NCBI GenBank assembly: GCA_002070455.1
Contig: MWDG01000001.1
Span: 240-64,239 of the forward strand
Length of the DNA stretch: 64,000 bases
Direction of reading: 5' to 3'
DNA from: Deltaproteobacteria bacterium ADurb.Bin151
GTDB lineage: Bacteria > Desulfobacterota > Syntrophia > Syntrophales > Smithellaceae
How positions within the stretch are numbered: the stretch's first letter is position 1; every line of letters starts with the position of its first letter. The translations under genes were made by a program, and so were the position numbers. Shown in pieces: positions 4,999 to 64,000 of the stretch. Below the pieces are notes generated by a model. That model was given only the letters and a program-made list of their open reading frames with translations. It was not told the DNA's origin and did no database searches.

Positions 4999-5060
4999 TG
5001 ATCGCTACAAAGGGATGTCGTTTGGGCAACAGGCTGTTAAATAGGAATTTCCTTGCGATC

Positions 5061-8229: not shown

Positions 8230-8230
8230 A

Positions 8231-8266: not shown

Positions 8267-8272
8267 AAAAAG

Positions 8273-8316
8273 AAGGCCGGCTGCAATAAATATTGAGCCG
8301 GCCTTTGTATTTTTTC
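8273..8316. terminator. Bidirectional rho-independent terminator between convergent prpE and lepB
   Basis: Stem aaggccggc (8273-8281) / gccggcctt (8297-8305). A T-run follows on the + strand (8310-8315) and a T-run follows on the - strand (complement of aaaaag 8267-8272). Confidence 0.75.
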
Positions 8317-8325
8317 AAAGCCTTA

Positions 8326-8955: not shown

Positions 8956-9017
8956 AAACCTGAACCTCTTTTCAATGATTATTTGGATTGCAATCAACGG
9001 ACAGAACGGTCTTGTCT

Positions 9018-9473
9018 TCAGTAAATTTCCATGGCGCATCCGCCGGCTAGCGTTCCGCCGAGTTCACGGCATTTTTCCAGGATTTCCTCGGTGATTTTCC
9101 CTTTTGCGATAACAGGGGTGAAAACATTTTTAAATTTGTAACCCAGGGCGATGCGCTCGATAGCCCTGAGGGCCCCCGATCCGTCATTGCCGGCGCTGAT
9201 GAAAACGACATAGGGCTTGCGGAAAACTTTGTCCTGGGCGTCTCCGTATGTCCGGTCAAAAAAATCCTTGATCATGCCGGACATATAGCCAAAGTTTTCC
9301 GGCGTGCCGATTGCAAGACCGTCACAGGTTAAGAGGTCGTCAATGGTCGCATCTACAGCTTTTTTAAAATTGACCTCCACGCCGTCGATGACCTTTGCGC
9401 CTTCATAGACGGCTTCGGCCATTTGCCGGGTATGCCCGGTCTGGGAATGATAAACAACTAAAATTCGGGTCAT
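9018..9473 (-). CDS. Flavodoxin-family protein
   Basis: 151 aa. Starts MTRILVVYHSQTGHTRQMAEAV, a typical flavodoxin-fold FMN-binding N-terminus. Confidence 0.75.
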   Translation of the reverse strand: MTRILVVYHSQTGHTRQMAEAVYEGAKVIDGVEVNFKKAVDATIDDLLTCDGLAIGTPENFGYMSGMIKDFFDRTYGDAQDKVFRKPYVVFISAGNDGSGALRAIERIALGYKFKNVFTPVIAKGKITEEILEKCRELGGTLAGGCAMEIY

Positions 9474-9480
9474 AAAATAA

Positions 9481-9639
9481 AATGGGTAAAGGGTTAGGGG
9501 TCATAGGTTAGGGGTGATGGATAATGGGGAAGAGGTAATAGGTGAGGAGTGAGGGGAGAAGAGTCAGAAAAAAAGATTTTTCATCCCCTAACCCTTCACT
9601 ACTCACTCCTGACCCCTAACCCATAACCCCTGACCTTTC
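9481..9639. repeat. Phased heptamer array forming a long imperfect inverted repeat (G-rich arm 9481-9564, C-rich arm 9591-9639)
   Basis: Direct reading. Left arm: aatgggt aaagggt taggggt cataggt taggggt gatggat aatgggg aagaggt aataggt gaggagt gagggga gaagagt. Spacer: cagaaaaaaagatttttc. Right arm: acccttc actactc actcctg accccta acccata acccctg acctttc. The right arm abuts the tpiA stop codon (comp. 9641-9639). Confidence 0.8.
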
Positions 9640-10385
9640 TATGGCATTTTGGAAATAATGCCCAGGAAGCCATCGGCTTTCAGCGATGCCCCGCCGACCA
9701 ACGCTCCGTCGATATCTTCCATCGCGATCAACTCAGTGATATTATCTTTCGTCACACTGCCGCCATAGAGAATACGAACATCAGCGGCCGCACAGCCGTA
9801 TATTTCAACAAGAAGCCGGCGAATGAAGTCATGAACATCTTCAGCCTGTGGCGGTGTTGCGACCAAGCCCGTTCCGATTGCCCAGACCGGTTCATAGGCG
9901 ATGACGACGTCGTCCAGCTTGTCAATTCCGTCCAGCGCGCCGCGAACCTGACGGTTCACAACTGCCTCCGTGATCCCTTTGTTTCTTTCACCGTCCGTTT
10001 CGCCGACACAGACAATAGGCTTCAAACCGGTTGCCAGCGCTTTCTTCACTTTCAAATTAACGGTTTCTTCGCTTTCGACAAAATACTTGCGGCGCTCCGA
10101 ATGCCCGATGATGACGTACGTGCAACCTGCATCTTTCAGCATCAGCGGAGAAACTTCGCCGGTGTACGCTCCCTTGTCTTCGAAATACATGTTTTGAGCA
10201 GCAATCGCCACAGTTGATCCTGTTAGGATTTCTCTGACGCTCTGCAGAGCGGTAAACGGTGGAGCAACCACCACCTCTCCGTTTTTTAAACCGGCCGTTC
10301 CTTCTTTTACTGTGCGGGCCAGTGCGACGGATTCGTCAATGGTGTTATTCATCTTCCAGTTGCCGGCAACAATCCATTTTCTCAT
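9639..10385 (-). CDS. tpiA: Triosephosphate isomerase
   Basis: 248 aa. AGNWKMN, IIGHSERR and AYEPVWAIGTG motifs. Confidence 0.95.
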   Translation of the reverse strand: MRKWIVAGNWKMNNTIDESVALARTVKEGTAGLKNGEVVVAPPFTALQSVREILTGSTVAIAAQNMYFEDKGAYTGEVSPLMLKDAGCTYVIIGHSERRKYFVESEETVNLKVKKALATGLKPIVCVGETDGERNKGITEAVVNRQVRGALDGIDKLDDVVIAYEPVWAIGTGLVATPPQAEDVHDFIRRLLVEIYGCAAADVRILYGGSVTKDNITELIAMEDIDGALVGGASLKADGFLGIISKMP

Positions 10386-10399
10386 CGGCTTTCTCCCTG

Positions 10400-11575
10400 T
10401 TAACCGAGTGCGGCAACAGCCGGCAGTGTTTTGCCTTCAAGGAGTTCCAGAAACGCGCCGCCGCCTGTGGATATGTAAGATATTTTATCGCTCTTGCCGG
10501 TCTTGTGAACGGCCGTGTCCGTATCGCCGCCACCCACAATGGTCATCGCACCGGATTGCACAACCGCATCCACCAGTTTAAATGTTCCTGAGGAAAAAGG
10601 AGCAAGCTCAAACATGCCCAGCGGACCGTTCCAGACAATTGTTTTGGCCGTTTTCACCGCGTCTGAAAAAGCCGCAATGCTTGCAGGGCCGATGTCCAGA
10701 CCCATCCAGCCGTCCGGAATGTCCTTGACGGCAACAATATTTCTTTCCGCATCCGCGGACGGTTCCTGGGCGATAACGGTATCCACCGGCAGGAGAAACT
10801 GCACGTTTTGGGCTTTGGCTTTGTCCATGATTTTTCTGGCCAGATCCAGCATGTCCGTTTCACACAGGGACTTGCCGACGTTGAAACCCTGGGCTTTCAG
10901 AAAAGTGAAAGCCATGCCGCCTCCCACGATCAGGCGGTCCACTTTGTCGATGACATTTTCCAGAACTTTAATTTTGTCGGACACTTTGGCACCGCCGATA
11001 ATGGCGACGAGCGGCCTTGTAGGATTGCCCATGGCCTTGTTGAAATATTCAATTTCATTTTTCAGAAGAAAGCCCGCGGCGCAGACCGGTACATACTTTG
11101 TAATGGCCGTGTTGGATGCAGCCGCACGGTGCGACACGGCAAACGCATCGTTAACATATACGTCACACAGTTTTGCAAGTTCCTGTGCAAAGGCTTCATC
11201 ATTTTTATCTTCACCCGGATGAAAACGCAGGTTCTCAAGTAAAATCAAATCACCTGCTTTCATCGCGGTCACGGCTTTTTCCGCTTTTTCGCCGATGCAG
11301 TCGTCAATAAAGGGAACGTCTGTTTTCAGCATTCCGGCAAGAACCGGGGCGACCGGTCTTAAGGAGAACTCTTCAACTCTTTTGCCCTTGGGCCGTCCTA
11401 GGTGAGATGTGACAATCACCCGGGCGCCTTTATCCCTGATAAAATTAATCGTTGCCAGACTTGCTTTGACGCGGGTAACGTCAGTGACGTTGCCTGACTT
11501 GTCCATGGGCACATTGAAATCCACCCGTACCAATACCTTCTTTCCGCTTACATCGATCTGATCCAAGTACTTCAT
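10400..11575 (-). CDS. pgk: Phosphoglycerate kinase
   Basis: 391 aa. VRVDFNVP, SHLGRPKG and STGGGAFLE motifs. Confidence 0.95.
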   Translation of the reverse strand: MKYLDQIDVSGKKVLVRVDFNVPMDKSGNVTDVTRVKASLATINFIRDKGARVIVTSHLGRPKGKRVEEFSLRPVAPVLAGMLKTDVPFIDDCIGEKAEKAVTAMKAGDLILLENLRFHPGEDKNDEAFAQELAKLCDVYVNDAFAVSHRAAASNTAITKYVPVCAAGFLLKNEIEYFNKAMGNPTRPLVAIIGGAKVSDKIKVLENVIDKVDRLIVGGGMAFTFLKAQGFNVGKSLCETDMLDLARKIMDKAKAQNVQFLLPVDTVIAQEPSADAERNIVAVKDIPDGWMGLDIGPASIAAFSDAVKTAKTIVWNGPLGMFELAPFSSGTFKLVDAVVQSGAMTIVGGGDTDTAVHKTGKSDKISYISTGGGAFLELLEGKTLPAVAALG

Positions 11576-11602
11576 GCGCGTTACCTCTTTTCACGTATTA
11601 TT

Positions 11603-12601
11603 TTATTTCATGATAAAAGACAGGAGCTCCAGCATTCGATTGGAGAAGCCCCATTCGTTGTCATACCATGAAAGTATTTTTACCATTCTGCCGCCGATGA
11701 CGGTAGTGTTGGGCAGATCCACAATCGATGAATGGGGATTGCCGTTAAAATCTTTGGATACCAGTTCTTCTTCGGAGCAGCATAAAATGCCTTTCATTGC
11801 CCTTTGAGAATGTTCTTTCAGTTTTTCGTTGACTTCCTGCTTGCTTGTCTCGCGGGAAAGGGTTGCCACAAAATCCACCAGGGAAACATTGGGGGTGGGT
11901 ACGCGTATCGCCAGTCCGTCAAGCCTGCCTTTCATTTCCGGAATGACTTCCGCAATAGCGCGGGCCGCGCCGGTTGTTGTCGGAATCATAGAAAGGGCTG
12001 AAGCACGGGTGCGCCGCAGGTCCTTATGGGCTTCGTCAAGCACGACCTGGTCGTTGGTGAAGGAATGAATGGTCGTCATCAATCCGTATTCAACCCCGAA
12101 TTCCTCATGCAGAATTTTCACAATCGGAGCCAGGCAATTTGTGGTACAGGATCCCATGGAGATGATGTGATGTTTCGAACGGTCATAGTCCTGCGAATTA
12201 ACGCCGAAAACTACCGTGACATCCGCTCCCCTGGCGGGCGCGGAGATGACCACTTTTCTGGCGCCGGCTTTCAGGTGCTTTTCCGCCCCGTCCTTGTCCG
12301 TGAATCTTCCCGTACTTTCGAGCACAACATCCACGCCTAAATCTCTCCAAGGCAGTGTTTCCGGGTCTCTGACGGAAAAGGCTTTGATTTCGCGGCCGTC
12401 AACGGTGATTGCATTGGGAGTGACTTTCACTTCAGCATCAAGTGTTCCATGGGTAGAATCATATTTGAGAAGGTGAGCGATTGTTTTTGCATCGGCTAGA
12501 TCATTGACTGCCACGAATTCCACATCTTTGCTTCTGTAACCGGCGCGGAATACCAGCCGCCCGATTCTTCCGAATCCGTTTATTGCAATCTTTATAGGCA
12601 T
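11603..12601 (-). CDS. gap: Glyceraldehyde-3-phosphate dehydrogenase (type I)
   Basis: MPIKIAINGFGRIGR start at 12601, preceded by GAGGAGG. SCTTNCLAP active site. The longer track start (12658) adds 19 non-conserved residues. Confidence 0.95.
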   Translation of the reverse strand: MPIKIAINGFGRIGRLVFRAGYRSKDVEFVAVNDLADAKTIAHLLKYDSTHGTLDAEVKVTPNAITVDGREIKAFSVRDPETLPWRDLGVDVVLESTGRFTDKDGAEKHLKAGARKVVISAPARGADVTVVFGVNSQDYDRSKHHIISMGSCTTNCLAPIVKILHEEFGVEYGLMTTIHSFTNDQVVLDEAHKDLRRTRASALSMIPTTTGAARAIAEVIPEMKGRLDGLAIRVPTPNVSLVDFVATLSRETSKQEVNEKLKEHSQRAMKGILCCSEEELVSKDFNGNPHSSIVDLPNTTVIGGRMVKILSWYDNEWGFSNRMLELLSFIMK

Positions 12602-12885
12602 TTTTTCCTCCTCAATCCTTACTTTAAAAAGATTAAACAAAAGCCTGTGGGTTGTCAATCCATTTCTCTTTTTTAAGGGGAGTCTGTCGGGCCAACAGGC
12701 GACCTAAGGCATGATGGATGCAAGGGAAATTGTTATGTTGAAGTAAGAGAGCTTATTTGCTAGAACCCAATCATGTCCGGTCGTCCACAAAATATTTTTT
12801 GCGCCGGAATGCTGCAAAAAAATCGATGGAGTGTTCGTTTGAATGAGGTGAACATTTCAATAAAAATTCCGGGGTGCAAACATCA

Positions 12886-50397: not shown

Positions 50398-51357
50398 CTA
50401 GGTCAGGTTCCGAATAGCCACGTTTCTTTCCTTGAGCTCCCTGCGGTTCGCGAGAAGACCTTCGGCGGCAACATGGTCGAGGACATAAATCAATTCGCCG
50501 CCCCGTTTGGAATACTGCTGACCATAGGAAATGGGAATCTCGGGAGTGACGCCACCCAGGAGAGATCGTGTTACGGATTCCGTCTTTCGTGCGCCGTTGG
50601 CCAGAAGAACAACGGTTTTCGCCTGATAAACCAGTTCAGCCCCCATACTTACGGCATACTGCGGCGAATCCGCTTTCCTGCTGAAATGCCCGTCGGCAAC
50701 TGCATTATGGATGGTATTTTCGTCCAGCTTTACGAGCATCACCGAACTTCCTTTAAAAGGAATACCTGATTCGTGAAAGGCCACATGACCGCGGCCGCCC
50801 ACCCCGATAATTTGAAGATCAATCCCGCCTGCCGCCTTAATTTTCCTGGCGTATCCATCCAGAATTTCTCTCCGAATCCAGGTCAGGTATTCTGATGATG
50901 CTCTGGCATGGATGGCGATGGATTTTCCGGCGTCGGTACCCCTGAATTCCCAGTCGCTTTTGTTTTCCTTTAATTCCCTGATCAGCTTTTTCTGGTCAAT
51001 CAACGATCCGTAGGGAACGCGGGTTTCAATGAATTTCTTCTCCAGATGACTGAAAAGCTCCTGAATCATAAAATAAGCATAGCTTTCCGGATGCAGGACC
51101 CGCTGCTGAATGTTGTCACCGGGCAGGCCGACATATTCATCGAGGTTGAAACTGCGGATCCGGCCGGAATCAAAAAGACCTTCATTGGCTGCCCGGGCGA
51201 AGTGTTTGTAAAGCCCTGTTGGTGAGTTTCCCGTGGCCAGCCCCAAAACAGCCTTTTTTTTCTTTTTAAGAATATCTACAGTTTTTTTGATGACAAGCCC
51301 TGAAGCAATTTCACTCATGTGCGAGAAGTCTCTTGTCACCCAAACCATTATGCCCAT
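50398..51357 (-). CDS. Glucosamine-6-phosphate deaminase / 6-phosphogluconolactonase-family protein (NagB-like, with insertions)
   Basis: ATG 51357 with AGGAG 9 nt upstream. LGLATGNSPTGLYKHF and GVGGRGHVAFHESG motifs. Confidence 0.7.
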   Translation of the reverse strand: MGIMVWVTRDFSHMSEIASGLVIKKTVDILKKKKKAVLGLATGNSPTGLYKHFARAANEGLFDSGRIRSFNLDEYVGLPGDNIQQRVLHPESYAYFMIQELFSHLEKKFIETRVPYGSLIDQKKLIRELKENKSDWEFRGTDAGKSIAIHARASSEYLTWIRREILDGYARKIKAAGGIDLQIIGVGGRGHVAFHESGIPFKGSSVMLVKLDENTIHNAVADGHFSRKADSPQYAVSMGAELVYQAKTVVLLANGARKTESVTRSLLGGVTPEIPISYGQQYSKRGGELIYVLDHVAAEGLLANRRELKERNVAIRNLT

Positions 51358-51373
51358 AATGTGTTCTCCTGTC

Positions 51374-52723
51374 TTATCCAAGTTCACTTTTTACAATATC
51401 AGCAATCTGCTGACAATACTTTGCCGTCACTGTATCGGAAGGACCTTCCACCATCACACGACACATGTTCTGGGTGCCTGAATAACGAACCAGAACACGA
51501 CCTTCTTCACCCAGTTCTTTTTCCACCTGTCTGATGGCCTCCACAAGCTTGGGAACTTTTTCAATATCCGGCTTACGTTGGACATCCACGTTGATCAGTT
51601 TTTGAGGGAAAATATCCATCATGCGCGCCAGTTCGGAAAGCGGTTTGCCTTCTTTGATCATTGCGGCAACCAGCTGAAGGGCGGCAATGATACCGTCGCC
51701 CGTGGTGTGATGCCTGAGGAAGATCATGTGCCCTGCTTCCTCTCCTCCGATGACGGATCCAAGCCGCAGCATATCTTCGAGAACATAGCGATCTCCCACT
51801 TTGGCGGCATGGTGCTGAAAACCGTATTTCTTGCAGGCCATTTTTAAACCCAGATTGCTCATCACCGTACTGACCAGCAGATCATTTTTCAGTTTTCCTT
51901 CTTTTTTCAGAATGTTTGCACAGATAATCAGAATCTGATCTCCTGTGATCTCATTGCCCTTTTCATCCACCGCGATGAGGCGGTCACCGTCCCCGTCGAA
52001 AGCCAGCCCGATGGCCGCGCCGTTATCGACGACTGTTTTTCTGAGGCGTTCTGTGTGCTGGGATCCGCACTGGTCGTTGATATTGATACCGTTTGGCGTT
52101 TTGTGAATCGTTTCAACATCAGCCCCAAGTTCGTTAAAGGTGTCCTGCGCCACCCGATAGGTAGCGCCATTGGCGGTGTCCAAAACAATTTTCATGCCTT
52201 CCATGGAAAGGCGGCGGGGAAATGTGTTTTTAACAAAAACGATGTACCGGCCAATTACCCCTTCAAGCCGGAAAGCTTTGCCAATGCCGCTTGCCGGCGG
52301 CAAATATTCATTGAGCCTGTGATTCAGAATCAGGTCTTCGATTGTTTCTTCCTGGGCATCGGTAAGTTTGTAGCCGTCACTGCCAAATATTTTTATTCCA
52401 TTGTCCTGAAACGGGTTGTGAGATGCTGAGATCACAACGCCCGCGTCTGCACGCATGCTCTGGGTGATAAAAGCAATTCCCGGTGTGGGCAGCACACCGA
52501 CAAGATAAGGATTCCCTCCCATCGAGCTTATCCCCGCTTCCAGAGAACTCTCCAGCATGTACCCGGAAAGCCGGGTGTCCTTGCCGATAATGATCATGGC
52601 GCGGTGCCCTTCCTTTTTAAATAGATGCACCATGGCCCGTCCAACTTCAAAGGCAATTTCAGGTGTCATGGGATAACGGTTTGCTTCGCCTCTGATCCCG
52701 TCCGTTCCAAATAATTTACCCAT
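51374..52723 (-). CDS. glmM: Phosphoglucosamine mutase
   Basis: 449 aa. MGKLFGTDGIRG, ISASHNPFQDNGIK and GDGDR motifs. Confidence 0.92.
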   Translation of the reverse strand: MGKLFGTDGIRGEANRYPMTPEIAFEVGRAMVHLFKKEGHRAMIIIGKDTRLSGYMLESSLEAGISSMGGNPYLVGVLPTPGIAFITQSMRADAGVVISASHNPFQDNGIKIFGSDGYKLTDAQEETIEDLILNHRLNEYLPPASGIGKAFRLEGVIGRYIVFVKNTFPRRLSMEGMKIVLDTANGATYRVAQDTFNELGADVETIHKTPNGININDQCGSQHTERLRKTVVDNGAAIGLAFDGDGDRLIAVDEKGNEITGDQILIICANILKKEGKLKNDLLVSTVMSNLGLKMACKKYGFQHHAAKVGDRYVLEDMLRLGSVIGGEEAGHMIFLRHHTTGDGIIAALQLVAAMIKEGKPLSELARMMDIFPQKLINVDVQRKPDIEKVPKLVEAIRQVEKELGEEGRVLVRYSGTQNMCRVMVEGPSDTVTAKYCQQIADIVKSELG

Positions 52724-52784: not shown

Positions 52785-54014
52785 TCAACCTGTTGGCGGC
52801 AGAGCCTGGGCGGCTTTTTGAACAATGGCATCCACAATGCCGTTTAACCATGTGATGCCCTTTCCCGAAACCTCTGCCGGCAGACGCTGGATGGTTGATA
52901 TGTAATTCGCACTTTTATCTTTCGCGTTTTTTTCAAAGTCGTTTAGAAATTCCTCCCGGGCTATTTCTGTTGCGGTCATGATCTCCGGTATTTTCCCCGT
53001 GAAAAGTTCTTCAAGCCATCCGATCTTTGATAGCAATTCCTTTCTTTTGCTGCTTTCTTCGACGGGTGATATGGCGGCTTTTGCGGTCATCGCCTTTAAT
53101 CTTTTCAGGCGCTCCTTTCTGGCCGACAGAAGCTGCTCCAGAAGAGCTTCATAGATCAGAGTTCCGAATTCCATGGTTTCCAGAAACGGTTTTCTTACCT
53201 GTGAATACCACGACTCAAGGGCCGCAAGGTTTGCAAGATAAAGAAAATTATTTTTGATGATACGACCAAAATTAGGGTATGCCGCGGGAATATAATCTTT
53301 GGTTCCATTTGCGGGGGATTTTTCAAATATCATTTGATTGCCCCCGGGATAATCATGCCGCAGGATGGATCCTGCTGCCACGACATTGCCGAAACCCAGT
53401 CTCACCGGTCCGATGATTCCTCCCTGTCCGCCCAGAAAGATGGGGGGTTGGTTCAACATGACCCCCCGGGGGACATCCCCCAGCAGCGAGGGGGTTGTTT
53501 TGTCGGCATCCGGCGTGAAATTAAAATGGATGTAGGAGCTTCCCACTTCAGAATGATTACTGCGGCTGGTGCCGCCGGCCATGAAGCAGTCGCAGAAGTT
53601 GATCAGGCTTCCCAGCGTTACAAAGGGGAAAAGAATGGTCTGCTTTAATCCGACGGTGTGCGCGCCGCTGGCTTCTTCTTCCAGGATGCATCCCTCCCGG
53701 ACATGTGCTCCCCTACCCATGTTTGCTTTTTCCAGAAATACGGATTGGCTGAAAAAGCCTCCTTTTAACTCAACTTTCGGGCCGAGCCGGCAGTTATCAA
53801 TGGTTGCCGGACCTTCGTAGCCCAGCTGGCAGCCGGATGATATAACGGTTTTACTTCCATAAATCCGACAACCCGGATAAATCCGGACTCCTTTGCCGGA
53901 AATCTGATCGATATTGACATCGTCACCAATATCAATGGTTCCCGGATTGGGAATTTCTGCACCTTTTTCAATCAGCTGTTTTATTTTTTCATAGGATTTT
54001 TGTTTTAAATCCAT
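52785..54014 (-). CDS. Left-handed beta-helix (hexapeptide-repeat) transferase-like protein, GlmU C-domain-like, with a helical C-terminal extension
   Basis: 409 aa. Imperfect hexapeptide periodicity through residues ~25-230 (IDIGDDVNI, VRIYPGCRIYG, TIDNCRLGPKV, GFGNVVAAGSIL). First gene of the glmM/nagB-like operon. Confidence 0.55.
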   Translation of the reverse strand: MDLKQKSYEKIKQLIEKGAEIPNPGTIDIGDDVNIDQISGKGVRIYPGCRIYGSKTVISSGCQLGYEGPATIDNCRLGPKVELKGGFFSQSVFLEKANMGRGAHVREGCILEEEASGAHTVGLKQTILFPFVTLGSLINFCDCFMAGGTSRSNHSEVGSSYIHFNFTPDADKTTPSLLGDVPRGVMLNQPPIFLGGQGGIIGPVRLGFGNVVAAGSILRHDYPGGNQMIFEKSPANGTKDYIPAAYPNFGRIIKNNFLYLANLAALESWYSQVRKPFLETMEFGTLIYEALLEQLLSARKERLKRLKAMTAKAAISPVEESSKRKELLSKIGWLEELFTGKIPEIMTATEIAREEFLNDFEKNAKDKSANYISTIQRLPAEVSGKGITWLNGIVDAIVQKAAQALPPTG

Positions 54015-54185: not shown

Positions 54186-55562
<1,377 letters not shown>

Positions 55563-55607: not shown

Positions 55608-56627
55608 TTATATTTTTATTCCTTCAATATCCTGCATTTTCTCATACTCCATCACGGTGGACATGGCCTTGTTGTCCACATCAAAGCCTGATTCACAGGC
55701 CGCGGCTATCGGATTTAAGCCGCCGATCAGAATCATTCCGATCTTGTTCATGTCCACATGGGTCTGGCACACGGGATGTCCCGTGTTACCGATAGACAAA
55801 ACACCGTGAATGCCGGCTCTGTCGAAATCGTCGATCACATGATTCACGAGGTTTCTGCTTAATGCAGGGATTTCACGGAAATTGGCCAGGATTTTTCCTT
55901 CGCCTTCTGCAGCCACCTGTGAAACGGATGTCATTTTGCCGCGAATGAAGATTTCCGACGGATCAAGGGAAGAACCGGCGTAATGGATCAATTCAACGAA
56001 TCTTAAAATTTCCCCCTTTCTCATCTGGAGAATGCCACCGAACTTGGAGTCAATGGGGATACCTTGTTTGAGCAGTACACCATTGATCACAATACTGCAA
56101 ACGGTAGCCAGGCCAATTTTGCCTTCGGGTACCAGGATATCGCCAAGGGTTTTTCCGGGCAGACCCACTGCCACGCGGGAACTGACAGCCAGTTTTTTTG
56201 CGAAAACAGGCTTCATGGCCTTCAGCGCCCTGGAAAATTGTTCCTTTGGGAAGAAAGAGATGTTTACTGGCACCATGCCGCGTTTCTTTTTGACGTCAAA
56301 AGTCGTCTTGAAGGACAGAACATCAATGCGTGAAATGGAAAGACCGATTTTATCCTGTACCCGGGCGTCGGATATTTCACTTTCCCCCTTGTCGGTAATC
56401 ATACGGCCGTCGCGCCGTCCCACCAGTTTGGTAAGACCGCGCTCGTCCATAATCTTGAGATGATATCTCACCGTTCGTTCGCTGAGCTGTATATTTTGTT
56501 CAAGCATCCGGCGCGCAATCACACGGGCTCCGAGCGGCTCCGCGCTTTCGTGGAGTATTTTCAGGATCAGGATTACCCTGCGTTCCAAATCTTCTGGTTT
56601 ATAAAACTCTTTCATATTTTTCTTCAT
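55608..56627 (-). CDS. nrpR: NrpR-like nitrogen regulatory repressor homologue (winged HTH plus one DUF128/NrpR regulatory domain)
   Basis: LERRVILILKILHESAEPLGARVIARRMLEQNIQLSERTVRYHLKIMDERGLT matches the archaeal NrpR N-terminal wHTH pattern, followed by ~250 aa of DUF128-like sequence. The start is uncertain (ATG 56627 or 56615, TTG 56666). Confidence 0.7.
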   Translation of the reverse strand: MKKNMKEFYKPEDLERRVILILKILHESAEPLGARVIARRMLEQNIQLSERTVRYHLKIMDERGLTKLVGRRDGRMITDKGESEISDARVQDKIGLSISRIDVLSFKTTFDVKKKRGMVPVNISFFPKEQFSRALKAMKPVFAKKLAVSSRVAVGLPGKTLGDILVPEGKIGLATVCSIVINGVLLKQGIPIDSKFGGILQMRKGEILRFVELIHYAGSSLDPSEIFIRGKMTSVSQVAAEGEGKILANFREIPALSRNLVNHVIDDFDRAGIHGVLSIGNTGHPVCQTHVDMNKIGMILIGGLNPIAAACESGFDVDNKAMSTVMEYEKMQDIEGIKI

Positions 56628-56901
56628 ACGGCAATCGGCAGCCGTTTGCCGTATGCTTACTGACAAACCTTTTTTTTGTCAAATAAAAAATACTATATTC
56701 TGTTGTCTTTATGATAAGTAATTGATATAATAGATAAATAATTAAATATGCGCGAAATCTGCGCGTCGGTTTATGTACAAAATACTTTCAGGCAAGCGAA
56801 AAGGATATTTGGGCAACAGGCCGTTGAGATGCCATGTGTCTTCCAATATACGGGTCAGACAGGCGCTGACCGTTTGAACAGGGCATAGTGTGAGAAAAGA
56901 T

Positions 56902-58329
56902 TTATACAGGCAGGCTCAGAATGGCCCGGGTTCCTCTGCTTTCACGGTTCTCCAAAAGAATATCGCCACTATGGAGAGAGGCCACTTGACGAACGAAATT
57001 CAAGCCCAGCCCTGTGCTTTTTTTCCCTGTTTCCGGCCTTTGGAGGGAATAAAATTTATCAAATACCTTATCAATGGCGTAATCGGGAATGCCGGGGCCG
57101 TGATCTTCAATGATAATTTTTACACTTCTGCCTTCCAGCCGGCCGGTGATGCGGATTTCTTCGTTTTTTCCGCTGAAGTCAACCGCGTTTTGGACGAGAT
57201 TGGCCAGGGCCTCATGCAACAGGAATTTATCCCCGGAAATCATGATTTCCGATGGTACTTCACAATGAAGGTCAAGTCCCTTGCGTTTCAGCAGCGGCTG
57301 TTTGCTTTCCAGCACTTCGGACAGAAGGGACCGCAGATTCACTTTTTCAATCGCTTGGAGCATTTTGAGATTTTCCAGCGCTGAAAGGGCCAGCAGCCGT
57401 TCAACGATATCATTGATCCGGCCGGCTTCATTGCGGATGTTGGCCAGGAATTTTGCCTGCTGCTCGGGCGGCATTTTTTCCTCCAGAAGCTCCGCCGCGG
57501 CGACAATAGCAGACAGGGGACTTTTTACCTCATGTGTCAGTGTCTGGATGTACTGCTCCACGTATTTTTTCCCCTCAAGGGTGGTTTTCATTTTTTCAAA
57601 TGCTTTTCCCATTTCACCGATTTCCGTGGCATCCAGTCTGGGGATATGAACGTTCTTTCCTTCCCCGATATCATTGGCATACCTTGTCAGGCGTTTGATG
57701 GGCAGTGTGATCCACCAGGACGCCAGCAGGCTCAGAAGGACCGCGGCAAGCATTGAAACGGATACCACCCTGTAGAATTCGGGTTTAAAATTCTCGATAA
57801 AATTGTTGATATTGGTTGTCGGTTTGGCAACCGTCAAAACTCCTGCGATGTCACCGCGGACGTAGATGGGAGCGCCGACATAAAGAATGGATGACTTCGG
57901 ATCTTCAAGGCTTGCCCTTGTGGAACGAGCTCCATATGCCCCTTCCAGCGTCAGGCGGACATCCCGCCATTTTGTGAAATCGGCGCCCACGTTATTCCTG
58001 TTTTGAGCATCAAAGAGCACCCTGCCGTTTTTGTCTGTGATATAGATGTTCATGTCCACATTTGTTTTGTCAAATTCATAGATTCTGGCGGACAACCGCC
58101 GGCGATAAACACTGTCAAATACCTGATACAAGCTCTCGCTGCTGAATTGCTTTGTTTCCATATCGCGGCCTACCATTGTTGCAAGAATGTTGGCCTGGTC
58201 CACAAGAGGATCTTCCACTCCTTCCAGGTAACGGAAACGGACTTTGTCTTTCATCCAGTTTACCGAATAATAAAAGCAGGCCGAGAAAATGATCAGGTAA
58301 CAAACAAAAATGCGGATGCCGATTTTCAT
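56902..58329 (-). CDS. CreC-like two-component sensor histidine kinase
   Basis: 475 aa. N-terminal TM, periplasmic domain, second TM/HAMP. HisKA LTHEVKSPLSAI. HATPase blocks NLVQNAVDF, DHGPGIP, GLGLNFV. Length and N-terminus resemble E. coli CreC. Confidence 0.75.
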   Translation of the reverse strand: MKIGIRIFVCYLIIFSACFYYSVNWMKDKVRFRYLEGVEDPLVDQANILATMVGRDMETKQFSSESLYQVFDSVYRRRLSARIYEFDKTNVDMNIYITDKNGRVLFDAQNRNNVGADFTKWRDVRLTLEGAYGARSTRASLEDPKSSILYVGAPIYVRGDIAGVLTVAKPTTNINNFIENFKPEFYRVVSVSMLAAVLLSLLASWWITLPIKRLTRYANDIGEGKNVHIPRLDATEIGEMGKAFEKMKTTLEGKKYVEQYIQTLTHEVKSPLSAIVAAAELLEEKMPPEQQAKFLANIRNEAGRINDIVERLLALSALENLKMLQAIEKVNLRSLLSEVLESKQPLLKRKGLDLHCEVPSEIMISGDKFLLHEALANLVQNAVDFSGKNEEIRITGRLEGRSVKIIIEDHGPGIPDYAIDKVFDKFYSLQRPETGKKSTGLGLNFVRQVASLHSGDILLENRESRGTRAILSLPV

Positions 58330-59006
58330 AAATTTTCTTTCAGGGAATATCCGGCTCCCCGATGGGTGATGATCGGTTCAATGTCCGGTTCAATCGATTT
58401 TAATTTTGCCCGCAGATTTTTGACGTGCGCGTCCACGGTCCTGTCCATGCTGGCTTCCGGGACGTCCCAGGCGAGGTCCATTAATTGACTGCGGGAATAA
58501 ACGTGCCCGGGTCTCCTGATAAAAGTGGTCAGAATCCGGTATTCGTAATTGGACAAATCCAGCGGTTTGCCAAAATAGGTGATTTGCCGTTTTGATTCAT
58601 TAACCTGGAAAGTGTGGGAACCTGATTCAGGAGATAGGCCTGTTTTGGAACGCCTTAGAATTGCTTTGATTCTCGCGGAAAGCTCGCGCGGGCTGAAGGG
58701 TTTTACAACATAGTCATCCGCGCCGATTTCCAGGCCGACGACGCGGTCGATTTCTGTTGTTCTTGCCGTCAGAAACAGGATCGGTGTATCACTGATTTTC
58801 CGGATTTCCCTGCAAAGATCAAATCCATTGATATCCGGCAGCCCCACATCCAGGACGATCAGATCAATCCTCTCGCTTTGCAGCAGGGGCAGAACCGGAC
58901 TGCCCTCGGAGAGGCTCAGGGTTTCAAAGCCGTCTGTTTCCAGCACATAACGGATCGCGTCTGCGATGGCCGGTTCGTCATCCACGATAAGAATTTGCAA
59001 TTTCAT
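58326..59006 (-). CDS. CreB-like OmpR-family response regulator
   Basis: 226 aa. ILIVDDEPAIADAI, LDVGLPDINGFDLCREIR, FLTARTTEIDRVVGLEIGADDYVVKPFSPREL. 4-nt overlaps with both neighbouring genes. Confidence 0.8.
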   Translation of the reverse strand: MKLQILIVDDEPAIADAIRYVLETDGFETLSLSEGSPVLPLLQSERIDLIVLDVGLPDINGFDLCREIRKISDTPILFLTARTTEIDRVVGLEIGADDYVVKPFSPRELSARIKAILRRSKTGLSPESGSHTFQVNESKRQITYFGKPLDLSNYEYRILTTFIRRPGHVYSRSQLMDLAWDVPEASMDRTVDAHVKNLRAKLKSIEPDIEPIITHRGAGYSLKENL

Positions 59007-59791
59007 AAATTCCGCCCGGGTTCCTGTTTCGGTTTGGCTGACCTATAGCATATTACCAGAAGAAACATCATTACAAAAAGGAAAAAACTGACAATCAGGA
59101 CATACATGGCATGCTCCCGAAATAAAGAGGGATTCTTGATGTGCGCCTGATTCATAACGGGCAGGGCGAGCACGATGAAGAGATACCAGAAAAGAGGGAC
59201 CAGGCAGGAGACGAAAATGCTTTTATGGTTGTCGCGTTTATTTTCTCGTTTACCCGTGTCAAAGTGCCGGCCTGATGAGATTTTTTGAACGCAAAAATAG
59301 AGGAAGCACAGGCAGACGAAATAAATGGCAATACCGGCGAGGCGATGGATATTCGCAGGCGTCATCATGGAGAAGTAGATGTCAGCTCGGTAAAGATAAA
59401 TAGAAAGGATGATGCGCAGACTGTTCGTGCAGACCGTCATGCCATAGGCAGCGGCAAAACCGGCCATCAGGTAAAGCGTTAAATATTGTTTGCGGTTTGT
59501 CGAACAAACAAGCGAAATGGTCAACATGCAAAATGCGGCAATCATGAAATTAATGCCGGAACATCCCGGAATGATCGCAATACGCTGATGGACGCTTACG
59601 TATCCGATGTTTTGCTCCTTCATGAACTGCTCTCCGGTCAGGGCTTCAACAAGGGATGCAGTAGGGCCGAGAATCCATTGGAGATCTTCGCTTGTGGACT
59701 GGCTGTATGTGTATTTCAGCCCTGCTGCAATGAATAAGACCAGCAGACAGTAAATAATTTTTCCTGTGTTCATCCGGTTCAACATTCTCAT
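59003..59791 (-). CDS. Exosortase/archaeosortase-family integral membrane protein
   Basis: 262 aa, polytopic. Contains the family's Cys motif IIPGCSGINFM and the downstream NSLRI Arg motif, plus ANIHRLAG. Sits directly downstream of a PEP-CTERM protein. Confidence 0.7.
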   Translation of the reverse strand: MRMLNRMNTGKIIYCLLVLFIAAGLKYTYSQSTSEDLQWILGPTASLVEALTGEQFMKEQNIGYVSVHQRIAIIPGCSGINFMIAAFCMLTISLVCSTNRKQYLTLYLMAGFAAAYGMTVCTNSLRIILSIYLYRADIYFSMMTPANIHRLAGIAIYFVCLCFLYFCVQKISSGRHFDTGKRENKRDNHKSIFVSCLVPLFWYLFIVLALPVMNQAHIKNPSLFREHAMYVLIVSFFLFVMMFLLVICYRSAKPKQEPGRNL

Positions 59792-59818
59792 TCTTCCCCC
59801 TTGCTGAAAAATTTGGAT

Positions 59819-61825
59819 CTAACTGCGGTTCTCTGCTGATCTACGCATTTGTTTAAGCGCAGCAGACAGGACGATCAGAAAGGCCATGAGGATCAGCAGA
59901 TAAAACTCCGGTTCGGGCGCGTTTAGCATCCCGCCCCCCACGGCAAATTCGGACACGCCGGCAGGCAGCGACAGGGGCTGCCTGATATCCCTGCTTTGAG
60001 CTTCGGGATTGCGTACAACTTCATGGACGGCAACAAACGATGTATGGGCTGTGAGCAGATTGTACCGCATGCCGAGATTCACAATCTCTTCCTTATTGCC
60101 GTTCTCTCCGTAAGCAGTGTTAAAATCTGATAGAAAGGAAAGTTTTTTCCTTGCCCATAATTGTCGGAGTGCGGCATTTTTATCTGAAGGTCCGGTGGAG
60201 GCAAGATCCAATGACTGGGAATAGCTGTTGTTGCCATTTTGGCCGGTGATGGTGATTCTTCCCTCAGGATTTCCACGCCATTTGCCGATCAGAGCGACCG
60301 GCCGTTCGGCAAACATATCCGGAATTTTTTCCGGTTCGACGTCATAGGCCTGAAATCCTTCAAAAGACACGCCAATGCCGGTCAAAAGAGGCGATGCAAT
60401 ATAGTTTCGGAATTTTTCAGCCGCTGCTGCCGCCCCCTCCTGCCTGGTGACAACAAAAGGCTCACCCTGTCCGGCATGCGCGATGCCTTCAATCAGGTAC
60501 CGGTTGACACTGCTTCCGATGCCAAAAGAAAAGAAATTGGTATTGTTGAGACTCTGCCGGATGAGCCGCAGGGCTTCCTTTTCCGCTGAAATATATCCGT
60601 CCGTCACCAGAATGACTGAACGGGAAACATTCGCCTTTCGGGGGATCGAAACGGCCGTCTTGAGTGCTTCAGAAAGTTCCGTTCCGCCGCTGCCCTGCTG
60701 CCCGTCTATTAAACGAATGGCCTGGTCAATGTTTTCTTGGCTGGCTGATACAGACACCGGCGACATAGTGACCGAACGGCCCGAGAAAAGAACAACGTTA
60801 AACCGGTCTGTGGGACGGAGTCCGCTGATCAGATTTTGCAGAAGTCTCTTGGAGATATCAAGAGGGAAGCCATACATGGACCCGGAAACATCAACCACAA
60901 AAATATACTCGCGTGCGGGAATGTCGGAGGTCCTGATATGATGCGGAGGTTGAACCATCAGTAAAAAGAAATTTTCGTCTTCTCCCCGGTATAACATCAA
61001 ACCGGAATGAATTTTTTTGCCCGTCAGGCGGTACTTCAAAATGAAGTCCCTGTTGCCGCTGTCGGCTTCGGACTCGTCAAGGGTGACCGATGCCGTATTT
61101 CTTTCCGGCCAGACAGTTCTGATTTTGTGCGTAACGCATGCAATGTCTTCCACCGGGACGCCGCCGGTGATGTCGACCGCAATATTGAAAGCGGATGTAG
61201 GTTTATTGCCTTCTTTCAGATAGGGACTTTTCACCCACTTGTCGGATTCCGGAGCAGCAGCTTCCGGAGTATTTGAATAGCGTGGACCGACGACTGTCGG
61301 ATAAACGAATTCGTAAATACCTGCCGTCGGTATGAGCAGTTCGGTATATCGCAGTTCAATCTCAACCCTGTCGCCGGGCAGGATATTGGCCACGCTCATG
61401 GTGAAGACATTCGGTCTTTCCTGGTCGAGAAGAGAAGCGCTTTTCCCTTCCTTTTTGGCCTTTTCAAAAGTCTGCCGGGCAGCCTTTCTTTCCTGAATTC
61501 TGGCGGTAATGAGTTGATTCCCGATTTTCATTTTCATCCCATAAACCGCCGCCTGTGTGGATGCGGGAAAAACATAGCATGCGTTAATCGGTTGTGAACC
61601 CTCATTGACATAATGCTGGGTCACCATAACATCGGCAATGATGCCGCTGATGCGAACATCGGCTTTTGTTTTTTTCAGCGGGAACCGATCAACGGATGCA
61701 TCGCCTCCTGTCACAACAAAGTAAGGCGATAGAGTCTTATCACTGTCCTGACCCGCAAAACCGGCATACGGGAAAAGAGTGAACAGCACAGTAAACGATA
61801 AAATAAGCCTGAAAATTACTCTCAT
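59819..61825 (-). CDS. Secreted VIT-domain plus von Willebrand factor A-domain protein with a PEP-CTERM-type sorting signal
   Basis: ATG 61825 (MRVIFRLILSFTVLFTLFPYAGFA signal peptide) with GAGGAGG 7 nt upstream. VIT block FPLKKTKADVRISGIIADVMVTQHY. vWA MIDAS FVVDVSGSM. C-terminus GGGMLNAPEPEFYLLILMAFLIVLSAALKQMRRSAENRS. Confidence 0.8.
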   Translation of the reverse strand: MRVIFRLILSFTVLFTLFPYAGFAGQDSDKTLSPYFVVTGGDASVDRFPLKKTKADVRISGIIADVMVTQHYVNEGSQPINACYVFPASTQAAVYGMKMKIGNQLITARIQERKAARQTFEKAKKEGKSASLLDQERPNVFTMSVANILPGDRVEIELRYTELLIPTAGIYEFVYPTVVGPRYSNTPEAAAPESDKWVKSPYLKEGNKPTSAFNIAVDITGGVPVEDIACVTHKIRTVWPERNTASVTLDESEADSGNRDFILKYRLTGKKIHSGLMLYRGEDENFFLLMVQPPHHIRTSDIPAREYIFVVDVSGSMYGFPLDISKRLLQNLISGLRPTDRFNVVLFSGRSVTMSPVSVSASQENIDQAIRLIDGQQGSGGTELSEALKTAVSIPRKANVSRSVILVTDGYISAEKEALRLIRQSLNNTNFFSFGIGSSVNRYLIEGIAHAGQGEPFVVTRQEGAAAAAEKFRNYIASPLLTGIGVSFEGFQAYDVEPEKIPDMFAERPVALIGKWRGNPEGRITITGQNGNNSYSQSLDLASTGPSDKNAALRQLWARKKLSFLSDFNTAYGENGNKEEIVNLGMRYNLLTAHTSFVAVHEVVRNPEAQSRDIRQPLSLPAGVSEFAVGGGMLNAPEPEFYLLILMAFLIVLSAALKQMRRSAENRS

Positions 61826-62122
61826 GATATATCCTCCTCGATCAATTGGTTTCCAATGGTTTTGGCCCATCGTTGGAAGTTAAGATAAACGGTGATTGTG
61901 AAGTGGTGATGAACGCAAAAAGAAAAATATGTGAAAAATGCTGTTCCATTTGATTCTCACCGTGGAAGTGGATCAAAGGTTGACTAATCTCGAAGAATAT
62001 GTGAAATAATCATTAATGTTGATGGTCATGTTTTTGAATTCCCGGCAGTCGCAAGCAGTAAAACGCAAAAGAACCAACATTCATAACATTGAAAAAAAGT
62101 AACCCGGAATGAAAATTTCATA

Positions 62123-62896
62123 ATGATGAATAAGAAAATAAAAATAGGCATTTTTGGCTTTGGTAAAACAGGCAGGCTGGTTACCAATGAATTTCTACAA
62201 GATAGGAATTTTGATGTTGTCTGGGTTGCAAGAAGGACCTTAAAAGATCATTATAAATTTGCCAGTCATCTGCTTGGCTATGAATATGAAAGAGGTGCAA
62301 TTTATTCGATCGCTGACATTGATGAAAGTTTTTTCAAAAATCATTTTGTCGACATTATTGTTGATTTCTCAAGTGCGAAAGGAGTTTATTCCTATCAGGC
62401 TGCGGCAGGGGAGGGAATAAAAATCATTTCTGCAATATCAAAATATAACCCGGAAGATATTCAATTGCTTGAAAGCCTGAAGAACGATACGGCCGTTCTA
62501 TATTCGCCGAATATTACGCTGGGTGTGAATTTTCTGTTAATCGCTTCTCAGATCCTGCAAAAAATTGCACCGCATGCCGACATTGAAATTGTTGAGGAAC
62601 ATTTCCGCGACAAAAAAGAAACATCCGGCACGGCGCTGAAAATAGCCAACATTTTGGGATTAGAAAAGGACAGGCATGTCAATTCCATCCGGGTTGGTGG
62701 AATTGTCGGAAAGCATGAAATCATCTTTGGCCTTCCCAATCAGACCATTCGTCTGATCCATGAAAGTTTTAATCGTGCCGCATTCGGACAAGGTGCGATT
62801 TTTGCCGCAAACTGGCTGATCCAAAAGAAAAAAGGCCTTTTTACGATGGAAAATATTATCATAGACATGTTTCAAAAGAATATACCGGTCTGCTGA
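62123..62896 (+). CDS. DapB-family (4-hydroxy-tetrahydrodipicolinate reductase-like) paralogue
   Basis: 257 aa. IGIFGFGKTGR (Rossmann), SPNITLGVNFL, EIVEEHFRDKKETSGTALKIA (compare the DapB signature E-x-HH-x-x-K-x-D-A-P-SGTA), GIVGKHEIIFG. Confidence 0.7.
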   Translation: MMNKKIKIGIFGFGKTGRLVTNEFLQDRNFDVVWVARRTLKDHYKFASHLLGYEYERGAIYSIADIDESFFKNHFVDIIVDFSSAKGVYSYQAAAGEGIKIISAISKYNPEDIQLLESLKNDTAVLYSPNITLGVNFLLIASQILQKIAPHADIEIVEEHFRDKKETSGTALKIANILGLEKDRHVNSIRVGGIVGKHEIIFGLPNQTIRLIHESFNRAAFGQGAIFAANWLIQKKKGLFTMENIIIDMFQKNIPVC

Positions 62897-63193
62897 TTTT
62901 GCAGATTAAGACCACTGATCATTACAGCCCGTCTGAAATAACCTGATAAAAATAACCTTGACTCATTGATTCGTGTGTGTTTTATTTTAAAAGTTAGTTA
63001 TATAAATTACTTAAGATCGTTCAGCGGTTTTATTTTTCTTTCGATAAGGGCTGAACGGGTGTGAAAGGCAATATTCAGGATAATAACCTGGCTGAAAAAC
63101 ATGAGAGAGGCACCCGCATGGATCGATCTGATGATCTGATCTTGAAGTTCTTTATGATGAGAAGTGTTGTCAATAACCAGAGGATGTTTTGTT

Positions 63194-64000
63194 ATGAGTA
63201 GCATGCAAAGCAATTCCGAAATTTCCGATCTGCAGGAGATCCTCAGACTGCAACAGGGATTGCAGGACATTACCGACTGCATCAATGCTGCGCAGAACGT
63301 AAAACAGATCATTCTGGATTCCCGGCCTCTGATTCTCAAGCTGTTCAATGTCGAAGCAGCTCATATTTACGTTGTAAACAGCAAGAACAAGACAGAAATA
63401 TACACTTATGTTCTTGCGGGTGATCAGGTAAAAGAAAGAAAGACAGAAGTCAGCAATCAAACCATCCCCGGTTATGTTGCGAATACCGGCAGGATGATTA
63501 ATATTTCCGATTTCAGCAATAATCTGCAGATCAACAAGTACTCAGACCTTCTGCTTGATTCAAACACGGATTCGAGATTCGGCGTACAAGTGAAACATAT
63601 TCTGGCAATGCCGGTTGTTTATGGCGGTGAAGTTCTGGGCGCCATTGAAGTTATCAACAAAAAGGGCAAGGAGGAACAGTTTTCAGATGATGAACCGGTG
63701 TTGCTGCAGGAAATTGTGGATGTGCTGGGTGTCGCACTTTACAATCAGCAACGGGTGGATCCCCGGGCAAAAAAATCAAAATTCAGTTATCTTGTTTCAA
63801 ACGGCCTGATTACGGAGGAGCAATTAAATCTGGTAAAAGAGGAATCCAGGGCATCCGGTGATTCGTTTGAGAATATATTAATGAATAAATACAATGTGCC
63901 TAAAACTGAAATCGGTCAATCCCTCGAGTATTTCTATCAATCCCGTTTTATTTCGTTTGATCCGAACACGCCCATTCCGGGTGATCTTCTGAAAAATCTG
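63194..64000 (+). CDS. GAF-domain protein continuing into a GspE/PilB N-terminal (T2SSE_N/MshEN-like) domain; partial, runs off the window end
   Basis: Absent from the ORF track (no stop in the window). ATG 63194: MSSMQSNSEISDLQEILRLQQGLQDI...IPGYVANTGRMINISD...ILAMPVVYGGEVLGAIEVINKKG (GAF), then YLVSNGLITEEQLNLVKEESRASGDSFENILMNKYNVPKTEIGQSLEYFY (T2SSE_N-like). Confidence 0.7.
   Translation, partial: MSSMQSNSEISDLQEILRLQQGLQDITDCINAAQNVKQIILDSRPLILKLFNVEAAHIYVVNSKNKTEIYTYVLAGDQVKERKTEVSNQTIPGYVANTGRMINISDFSNNLQINKYSDLLLDSNTDSRFGVQVKHILAMPVVYGGEVLGAIEVINKKGKEEQFSDDEPVLLQEIVDVLGVALYNQQRVDPRAKKSKFSYLVSNGLITEEQLNLVKEESRASGDSFENILMNKYNVPKTEIGQSLEYFYQSRFISFDPNTPIPGDLLKNL

Follow-up and report, generated by a model that had tools for sequence, protein, structure and literature searches.

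Why would a protein of the VIT-vWA family, relatives of which are sortase targets in marine proteobacteria, be encoded next to an exosortase and a two-component system (TCS)? The question is raised by four minus-strand genes on contig MWDG01000001.1 of Deltaproteobacteria bacterium ADurb.Bin151 (Smithellaceae), within the 64,000-nucleotide stretch analyzed here (contig positions 240 to 64,239; hereafter the window, whose own numbering is used throughout). They encode a VIT-vWA protein, referred to below as the cargo (open reading frame (ORF) open over 59819-61870, 683 aa; likely gene 59819-61825, 668 aa), an exosortase of the XrtK class (59003-59791, 262 aa), a CreB-type response regulator (58326-59006, 226 aa) and a CreC-type sensor histidine kinase (56902-58329, 475 aa), and all coordinates given for features of these genes and of their promoter refer to the minus strand. 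The observations set out below make it likely that the locus is a self-contained and self-regulating surface-protein module of a Smithella-type syntroph. Its components are individually known and already annotated, and what is new lies at the level of the system, namely wiring of the CreBC type together with a cre-tag array conserved upstream of the cargo gene, the breadth of its distribution and a sorting-tail signature that current models miss.

The original prediction, made from the letters of this DNA, had described four genes on the same strand separated by a 27-nt gap and then two 4-nt overlaps. This layout is borne out by the ORF coordinates, with 27 nt between the cargo and exosortase genes and a 4-nt ATGA stop/start overlap at both the exosortase/creB and creB/creC junctions; the two ATGA overlaps suggest translational coupling within what would be a single transcript. 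The end coordinate then given for the operon, 61913, had to be abandoned, as no gene boundary falls there and a cre-tag-like repeat has its 5' end at this position; the functional unit reaches at least position 61935. Identical sequences are already in public records of Smithella sp. and of anaerobic-digester metagenome-assembled genomes (MAGs), the names given by NCBI to the four products are "VWA domain-containing protein", "exosortase K", "CreB" and "CreC", and the top genome match of the window is an uncultured Smithella MAG at 95% identity.

The cargo protein and its sorting tail

Translation of the cargo most likely begins at the ATG at 61825, which is M16 of the long ORF and leaves a protein of 668 aa, an assignment made almost certain by the Shine-Dalgarno sequence GGAGG at 61833-61837, 7 nt upstream, by the starts of the orthologues and by the 668-aa length of the public product. 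From there the protein carries a Sec signal peptide (61754-61825), a VIT domain (61346-61678, Pfam E 3.8e-34) and a vWA domain (60452-60904, Pfam E 1.3e-21), all three of which had been recognized from the outset, the VIT and vWA domains being confirmed by Pfam. The metal-ion-dependent adhesion site (MIDAS) of the vWA domain, of which DVSGS (60878-60892, aa 327-331 of the long ORF) had been noticed, is complete, with the T of GGTELS and the D of VTDGY.

The C-terminus reads ...GGGMLNAPEPEFYLLILMAFLIVLSAALKQMRRSAENRS and contains a predicted sorting signal (59822-59980) made of QPLSLPAGVSEFAVGGGMLNA-PEP-EF, a transmembrane (TM) helix (59855-59905) and the basic cluster KQMRRSAENRS (59822-59854). 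A tripartite tail of this type (PEP-like motif, TM helix, basic cluster) is thus present at the extreme C-terminus of a protein with an N-terminal signal peptide. One genome per GTDB species was scanned with exosortase-derived patterns and metagenomic contigs were added, which yielded 79 non-duplicate loci with an exosortase gene (loci are cited below by L numbers), and the context of those from public genomes was read from flanks of about 7 kb per locus. In about 70 loci the tail keeps the signature QPLPLPxGVSxxAVG, 2-6 residues, [PAVSGD]EP[EGD], a hydrophobic helix and a basic cluster, and its conservation extends to orthologues of several phyla.

Describing the cargo as a PEP-CTERM protein was correct as regards the PEP, TM and basic elements, which are found as quoted, and did not hold as regards family membership, the 53-aa tail alone giving no family match to the generic PEP-CTERM model TIGR02595 at E up to 10, in a scan where HMMER filters may lose short matches. 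The tail is best read as a variant sorting signal rather than as a member of TIGR02595, and the fact that current PEP-CTERM models miss its signature would explain why the annotation of the cargo goes no further than VWA domain-containing protein. MSEP-CTERM (TIGR04286) was also considered as the cargo family and ruled out, with no match even at E up to 10.

On the other hand, TIGR03788, which describes the marine proteobacterial sortase target, matches the cargo with 432 bits over aa 67-644. This score is below the equivalog cutoff (551.65 bits), the tail is of the PEP type and not LPXTG, and no sortase was found among the neighbour genes checked in the window. Because the homology spans aa 67-644, the cargo can be regarded as a member of the same family with another C-terminus, and the proposal that the same cargo architecture is here served by a different sorting system is upheld.

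The exosortase

The identification of the 262-aa protein as an exosortase stands, since it passes the signature model TIGR04178 (31.4 bits, cutoff 23) and the XrtK model TIGR04287 (101.5 bits, cutoff 55), the latter over aa 11-173, corresponding to model positions 2-160 of 163; it also passes PF09721 (Exosortase_EpsH; 28.9 bits, cutoff 25.7). More than 1,600 sequence clusters are related to it and mostly labelled exosortase K, the name that NCBI and JGI give to this protein and to over a thousand relatives. The motifs IIPGCSGINFM (aa 73-83) and NSLRI (aa 123-127), quoted earlier as marks of this polytopic protein, were found in place, and C77, N123, R126, H149 and R150 are invariant among 17 aligned homologues with identities as low as 33%. 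Cys77 (59561-59563), Arg126 (59414-59416) and His149 (59345-59347) are the candidate catalytic residues.

The AlphaFold2 model of the protein (predicted local distance difference test 84.8, predicted template modelling score 0.83) contains six membrane helices, arranged as an N-terminal TM helix, a periplasmic helix with a beta-hairpin, three helices bearing the Cys, Arg and His residues and two final helices (aa 186-252). This model, together with the way Lys and Arg residues are spread over the loops, read by the positive-inside rule, suggests that Cys77, Arg126 and His149 are located at the periplasmic ends of their helices, and the PEP motif of the cargo, just outside its TM helix, would share that periplasmic side with them.

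At 262 aa the enzyme does not have the compact size expected from the 163-position XrtK model. Indeed, the model does not cover the two helices at the C-terminus (aa 174-262, 59006-59272); this extension contains a conserved periplasmic loop (PLFWY...PxxNxA...LFxEH) and is missing from short relatives of 175-200 aa belonging to other clades. The extension weakly matches positions 135-196 of 920 of TIGR04286 (E 1.3e-4), that is, the N-terminal membrane region of MSEP-CTERM proteins; this match probably reflects TM composition, as other membrane-protein models score nearly alike.

One could argue that the tail is an uncleaved membrane anchor and the 262-aa protein a non-proteolytic partner, for instance a chaperone or a scaffold, all the more since this exosortase class is not known to have been studied biochemically and no related structure has been solved: none of the solved structures is a sequence relative, and a Foldseek search with the model returned none at E 0.001 or better, its top matches being generic 7-TM proteins. 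The invariance of the Cys, Arg and His residues among homologues goes against such a role, and a plain anchor would need neither a conserved EP motif nor a conserved signature upstream of it, so that we hold this explanation to be very improbable. We favor an XrtK-class enzyme that would act on its cognate tail by cleavage and transfer.

The CreB/CreC pair

The naming of the last two genes as CreB-like and CreC-like was well founded, as both products pass the cutoffs of the NCBI equivalogs and are 50% and 37% identical, respectively, to the E. coli K-12 proteins. The regulator, of the OmpR/PhoB family, scores 314.9 bits with the CreB model NF008296 (cutoff 273), is aligned with E. coli CreB over its whole length and has its receiver Asp53 at 58848-58850. 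The kinase scores 568 bits with the CreC model NF008312 (cutoff 356), with residues 1-474 aligned, and its resemblance to E. coli CreC is full length, periplasmic sensor domain included. It comprises two TM helices, a periplasmic domain that is weakly Cache-like, and HAMP, HisKA and HATPase domains, the domains being those assigned by Pfam; the HisKA His266 is encoded at 57532-57534.

A TCS of the Pds type, as found with the sortase form of the cargo, was tried and rejected (TIGR03785, 126.4 bits for a cutoff of 612.2; TIGR03787, 141.7 bits for a cutoff of 335.7). No match to creA or creD was detected anywhere in the 64-kb window, and E. coli CreD proved unrelated to either the exosortase or the cargo (hhalign probability 0.1; BLASTP E > 0.1).

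Distribution and inheritance of the cassette

The cargo gene lies directly upstream of the exosortase gene and on the same strand in 77 of the 79 loci, in all lineages, and is off the contig in the other two. CreBC-like genes are linked in 39 of the 79. The order cargo, xrt, creB-like, creC-like is found in 35 loci from Syntrophales, Desulfobacterales, Geobacter, Binatia, Thermoanaerobaculia/Holophagales and Polarisedimenticolia, and the order creB, creC, cargo, xrt in four gammaproteobacterial loci, to which L074, whose kinase gene is cut by the contig end, can be added. A further 33 loci, mostly from Acidobacteriota and Polyangiaceae, are without CreBC-like genes, and seven from various lineages are mostly unjudgeable since the contig ends at most 1.5 kb after the exosortase gene (L016 ends in a CreB-like gene). 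The conservation of gene neighbourhood, which had been proposed as a check, is therefore found across several phyla for the cargo-exosortase adjacency as well as for the CreBC-like linkage.

Flanking genes vary between loci, and clustering of the flank ORFs revealed no fifth conserved gene, only the cassette genes and antisense shadow ORFs recurring in the CreBC-linked loci. Across loci, the four genes have diverged in close step with one another (rho 0.87-0.92). In a neighbour-joining tree built on the exosortase core there are three clades, one gammaproteobacterial, one made of short forms without CreBC and one with CreBC downstream; the last crosses phylum boundaries, which suggests horizontal transfer of the whole module.

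Does the exosortase serve this cargo only, or is it a general enzyme with several substrates genome-wide, of which the VIT-vWA protein would merely be the most conserved client? Large genomes, such as that of Desulfosarcina variabilis (L032), may hold further PEP-CTERM proteins, and the cargo of L085, considered below, sits apart from any exosortase. Against a general enzyme stand the adjacency of the pair in 77 of the 79 loci across several phyla and the specialized tail signature, which the general PEP-CTERM model misses. Furthermore, neither 900 kb of flanks nor the 64-kb window yielded a second PEP-type tail, and the locus is not one for exopolysaccharide (EPS) synthesis with an XrtA enzyme, a setting that would have weakened the original prediction: its neighbours are DapB-like, NrpR-like, glutamate dehydrogenase (gdh) and GlmM genes, of housekeeping type. 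According to Haft and Varghese, adjacency of enzyme and target is typical of single-target systems (PMC3237569). We thus regard the general enzyme as unlikely and a dedicated pair as the preferred reading.

Some lineages depart from the common arrangement. In L087 (a Pseudomonadota MAG, 4624-12657) the order is cargo, xrt, creB, creC, an ankyrin-repeat gene and creD, and this is the only one of the related loci with creD nearby; a 32-aa relic of the 3' end of creC (11760-11855) stands just before creD and may be the trace of an ancestral creC-creD junction. In Acidobacteriota, Vicinamibacterales among them (L053, 335-7489; L048, L051, L055, L057-L059, L064 and L073) the cargo gene overlaps that of a 175-200-aa exosortase by about 25 nt, and genes for a histidine kinase, a sigma-54-dependent regulator and a tetratricopeptide repeat (TPR) protein precede the cargo in place of CreBC. 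This sigma-54 type TCS suggests that the cargo-enzyme pair has been wired to different regulators according to lineage.

Four loci from MAGs labelled Bacillota, Clostridiaceae or Acetatifactor (L027, L029, L034 and L035) have a cargo and a long exosortase without CreBC; their exosortases nest inside the CreBC-linked clade, and L035 is flanked by genes for glycoside hydrolases and an AraC regulator. Either the host is monoderm or the contigs were mis-binned. The cargo gene appears split or truncated in L004 (6308-8004, ORFs of 238 and 234 aa), L013, L050 and L051, probably by assembly frameshifts in these MAG loci, pseudogenes being possible.

The promoter region and the cre-tag array

Upstream of the cargo gene lies an array of four half-sites with an 11-bp period (61898-61935), predicted to be the CreB site: TTCAC (61935-61931), TTCTT (61924-61920), TTCAT (61913-61909) and TTCAC (61902-61898). 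Its downstream half is the dimer TTCATcaccacTTCAC, 88 nt before the cargo ATG. The cre/blr-tag of E. coli is TTCACnnnnnnTTCAC (PMC3660660), and the tag of the E. coli creD promoter, TTCACcgtcacTTCAC, is placed 77 nt before the start codon; the array of the window mirrors the latter in sequence and in position, with TTCAC repeats and a 6-nt spacer in both. It reaches a score of 16 of 20 or more, which no other array of the window does on either strand, whereas shuffled windows contained on average 0.07 arrays at this threshold and none reached 17. A weaker cre-like array (15 of 20) is located 70 bp further upstream (61968-62005); it could be an extra CreB site or a chance occurrence and is tentative, because about 0.5 arrays per window are expected by chance at that score.

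A -10-like hexamer, TATCTT (61882-61887), follows the last half-site by 10 nt, and its equivalent TTATYYT is kept in L001, L002 and L005. The half-sites thus occupy the place of a -35 element, which is the arrangement expected of an activator of the OmpR/PhoB family and makes direct activation by CreB the most likely mode of control.

The array is a conserved island in the otherwise diverged intergenic DNA of the orthologous loci, and its presence is associated with that of the TCS. When one mismatch at most is allowed, 17 of 29 TCS-linked loci and 4 of 36 others have the dimer upstream of the cargo, compared with 0 of 29 and 1 of 36, respectively, for its reverse complement, taken as a control. 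None of the four dimers outside the TCS-linked group belongs to a locus that is clearly devoid of the TCS: L015 and L020 end before a TCS would be visible, L016 ends in a CreB-like gene and L074 starts inside an upstream kinase gene. The mean four-site score is 15.9 of 20 in TCS-linked loci and 11.6 in the others, compared with 10.8 on the reverse strand and about 11 in shuffles, and L037 (Desulfatitalea) has a perfect array (20 of 20). Arrays upstream of the cargo are found only with linked, or unjudgeable, CreBC/CreB-like genes, the exceptions being L026 and L085.

These observations also bear on the possibility that the cargo and the exosortase act mainly on the input side of CreC, the cargo being an extracytoplasmic co-sensor or its processing state being read by the kinase. 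The strict co-inheritance of the four genes (the rho values given above), the ligand-binding nature of a vWA MIDAS domain when no signal has been assigned to CreC, and the first position of the TCS genes in the gammaproteobacterial loci would all fit such a role. It is countered by the tag array upstream of the cargo, which is the signature of a regulated target, and by the 33 loci that have the cargo and exosortase without CreBC and the unrelated sigma-54 type TCS of Acidobacteriota; since CreBC-less and sigma-54-linked loci exist, the pair appears to work independently of CreC. The analogous Pds system, furthermore, illustrates regulation of output (PMC11580497). Input and output roles are compatible with each other, and a mainly input-side function seems to us quite unlikely, somewhat more so than a general exosortase. 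Our preferred reading is that of a CreB-type regulator that most likely acts directly on the cargo promoter as an activator and, by read-through, promotes its own synthesis.

Proposed mechanism and points that weigh against it

In the scheme that we propose, the CreC-type kinase would sense a periplasmic or envelope signal and phosphorylate the CreB-type regulator, which in its phosphorylated form would bind the four TTCAC-like half-sites, 11 bp apart, in place of a -35 element and activate a single transcript covering the cargo, exosortase, creB and creC genes. The VIT-vWA cargo would be exported by the Sec pathway and retained in the inner membrane by its C-terminal helix, until the six-helix XrtK-class exosortase cleaves it at, or close to, the PEP motif and hands it over to an acceptor. 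The outcome would be a MIDAS-bearing, ligand-binding protein, possibly with an adhesive role, on or outside the cell. Signal-controlled output is also suggested by analogy with the Pds cassette, as a point mutation in the pdsS kinase gene of Shewanella algae leads to 126- to 799-fold higher expression of the genes linked to it, those for the sortase, its VIT-vWA target and PdsO (PMC11580497).

Several points weigh against this scheme, every step of which is a computational proposal. The one-substrate status of the exosortase is supported by synteny, and the sampling of three loci from the cargo side gave the full cassette in two and, in the third, a cargo without adjacent exosortase or TCS. 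The latter, L085 (complete genome CP070843.1, 5876-8010), has an intact tail and an array of 17 of 20, and neither an exosortase nor CreBC was found within 6 kb of it, the cargo gene being followed by a 64-aa ORF and an uncalled gap; its partner genes may be elsewhere or lost. To our knowledge, for exosortases in general, neither the acceptor nor the final location of the cargo has been established. At the promoter, E. coli-like DNA specificity is assumed for a regulator 50% identical to CreB, the gammaproteobacterial loci show a TCCAY variant at the same position, and arrays are degenerate (12-14 of 20) in five TCS-linked loci (L021, L030, L062, L063 and L066). TCS-linked loci are mostly AT-rich and TCS-less ones mostly GC-rich, although the strand and shuffle controls make a composition artefact unlikely. 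Finally, a sigma-70 promoter scan found no consensus -35 and nothing above shuffle expectation, and a terminator scan found no clear terminator after the kinase gene; the lack of a -35 consensus would fit an activator-dependent promoter.

Relation to known systems

The sortase form of the VIT-vWA cargo has a dedicated TCS of its own, PdsS/PdsR (PMC11580497). The Pds system (sortase TIGR03784, target TIGR03788, PdsS/PdsR TIGR03785/TIGR03787 and the OmpA-like PdsO) shares with the present module a cargo homologous over aa 67-644, a single sorting enzyme adjoining a single target and a linked TCS. It differs by the use of a sortase and LPXTG, in place of a polytopic exosortase and a PEP/TM/basic tail, and by a TCS that is not of the CreBC type; moreover, no PdsO-like gene was found among the neighbours in the window or among the recurring flank ORFs. 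The idea of a cargo module wired to a TCS is thus confirmed as far as the CreBC linkage is concerned, and it introduces no new principle of control: because the sortase version has PdsS/PdsR, TCS wiring is a shared theme.

CreBC, also known as BlrAB, occurs in E. coli, Aeromonas, Pseudomonas and Stenotrophomonas, with a regulon that includes creD. The pair described here consists of equivalogs and has the TTCAC tag upstream of a regulated gene in common with it; the E. coli locus, unlike this one, contains creA and creD, whereas here the regulated genes would be those of a sorted surface protein and its exosortase, and the TCS comes last in gene order. The recognized partner of exosortase K (TIGR04287) is the MSEP-CTERM family (TIGR04286) according to the TIGRFAMs description, and we know of no mention of CreBC linkage in it; the enzyme of the window agrees with this class by its match to the XrtK model and departs from it by a cargo without TIGR04286 match and by the two-helix extension.

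In the XrtA/PEP-CTERM system, PrsK, PrsR and PrsT are the associated proteins (NCBIfam model names and TIGRFAMs descriptions). There too an exosortase and PEP-type tails are under two-component control, but the locus of the window is neither an EPS locus nor a many-to-one system, its regulator is of the OmpR/PhoB type and not sigma-54 dependent, and its tail is missed by TIGR02595. The neighbours of the short Acidobacteriota cassettes (kinase, sigma-54 regulator and TPR protein) weakly resemble PrsK, PrsR and PrsT.

That the tail of this cargo family can be exchanged was already put forward by Haft and Varghese in 2011 for the VIT-vWA "vault homologue" family, with GlyGly-CTERM (rhombosortase), LPXTG (sortase) and, in Verrucomicrobium spinosum, PEP-CTERM tails (PMC3237569). 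In the parts of that paper devoted to the family, the cargo is the same and the PEP-CTERM form is a single example, recognized by TIGR02595, with no XrtK-class partner, CreBC link or tag array (PMC3237569). A literature search, the coverage of which did not extend to the main exosortase paper, returned no description of XrtK nor of any exosortase with CreBC. The supposed novelty of the combination consequently survives for the exosortase-CreBC association and has to be reduced for its parts, three of the genes being already named publicly and a PEP-CTERM VIT-vWA protein having been shown in 2011 (PMC3237569).

With this module, the sortase and rhombosortase forms of the VIT-vWA cargo are joined by a third dedicated one, based on an exosortase, and two-component control of this cargo is shown to recur with different regulator families. 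The module ties the CreBC pair and its tag to one defined and portable output, and does so in dozens of genomes of Desulfobacterota, Acidobacteriota, Binatia and Gammaproteobacteria. CreBC has been known since the PhoM era and is poorly understood, its enterobacterial regulon being a mixed gene set, and the module offers a clean system for asking what CreC senses.

A wider reading can be put forward tentatively, although we find it somewhat doubtful: the CreBC/XrtK/VIT-vWA module would be ancient and phylum-crossing, E. coli and Desulfobacterota would have retained the same recognition of the cre-tag, a sorted MIDAS surface protein would be the primary and possibly ancestral output of CreBC, and the cargo would have been wired independently to three TCSs (PdsRS, CreBC and the sigma-54 type) and to no fewer than three sorting enzymes. 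If true, this threefold TCS wiring would single out the cargo as a generally important factor of the envelope or of adhesion, induced by a signal. In Smithella-like syntrophs, a signal-induced adhesin-like protein could, speculatively, bear on the formation of aggregates.

Neighbouring genes and minor observations

A divergent DapB-like gene (62123-62896) shares its intergenic region with the cargo promoter. Past this promoter (61500-64000 of the window) the GC content falls from about 0.48-0.50 to 0.38-0.42, a drop that takes in the DapB-like gene and the stretch downstream.

On the other side of the cassette, an NrpR-type regulator gene (55608-56666, minus strand) lies directly upstream of gdh (54186-55547, minus strand). 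The NrpR-type protein matches the Pfam family NRD1_2 (E 1e-81) and contains a winged helix. NrpR is best known as the archaeal nitrogen repressor, and its pairing with gdh in a bacterial genome suggests nitrogen control of gdh.

Between gdh and glmM (51374-52723), a 409-aa ORF (52785-54014, minus strand) has no Pfam match at E <= 1e-5; on visual inspection its N-terminal half seems to consist of repeats, in the manner of a beta-helix or hexapeptide fold. A gene with weak similarity to glucosamine-6-phosphate isomerase is located at 50398-51387.

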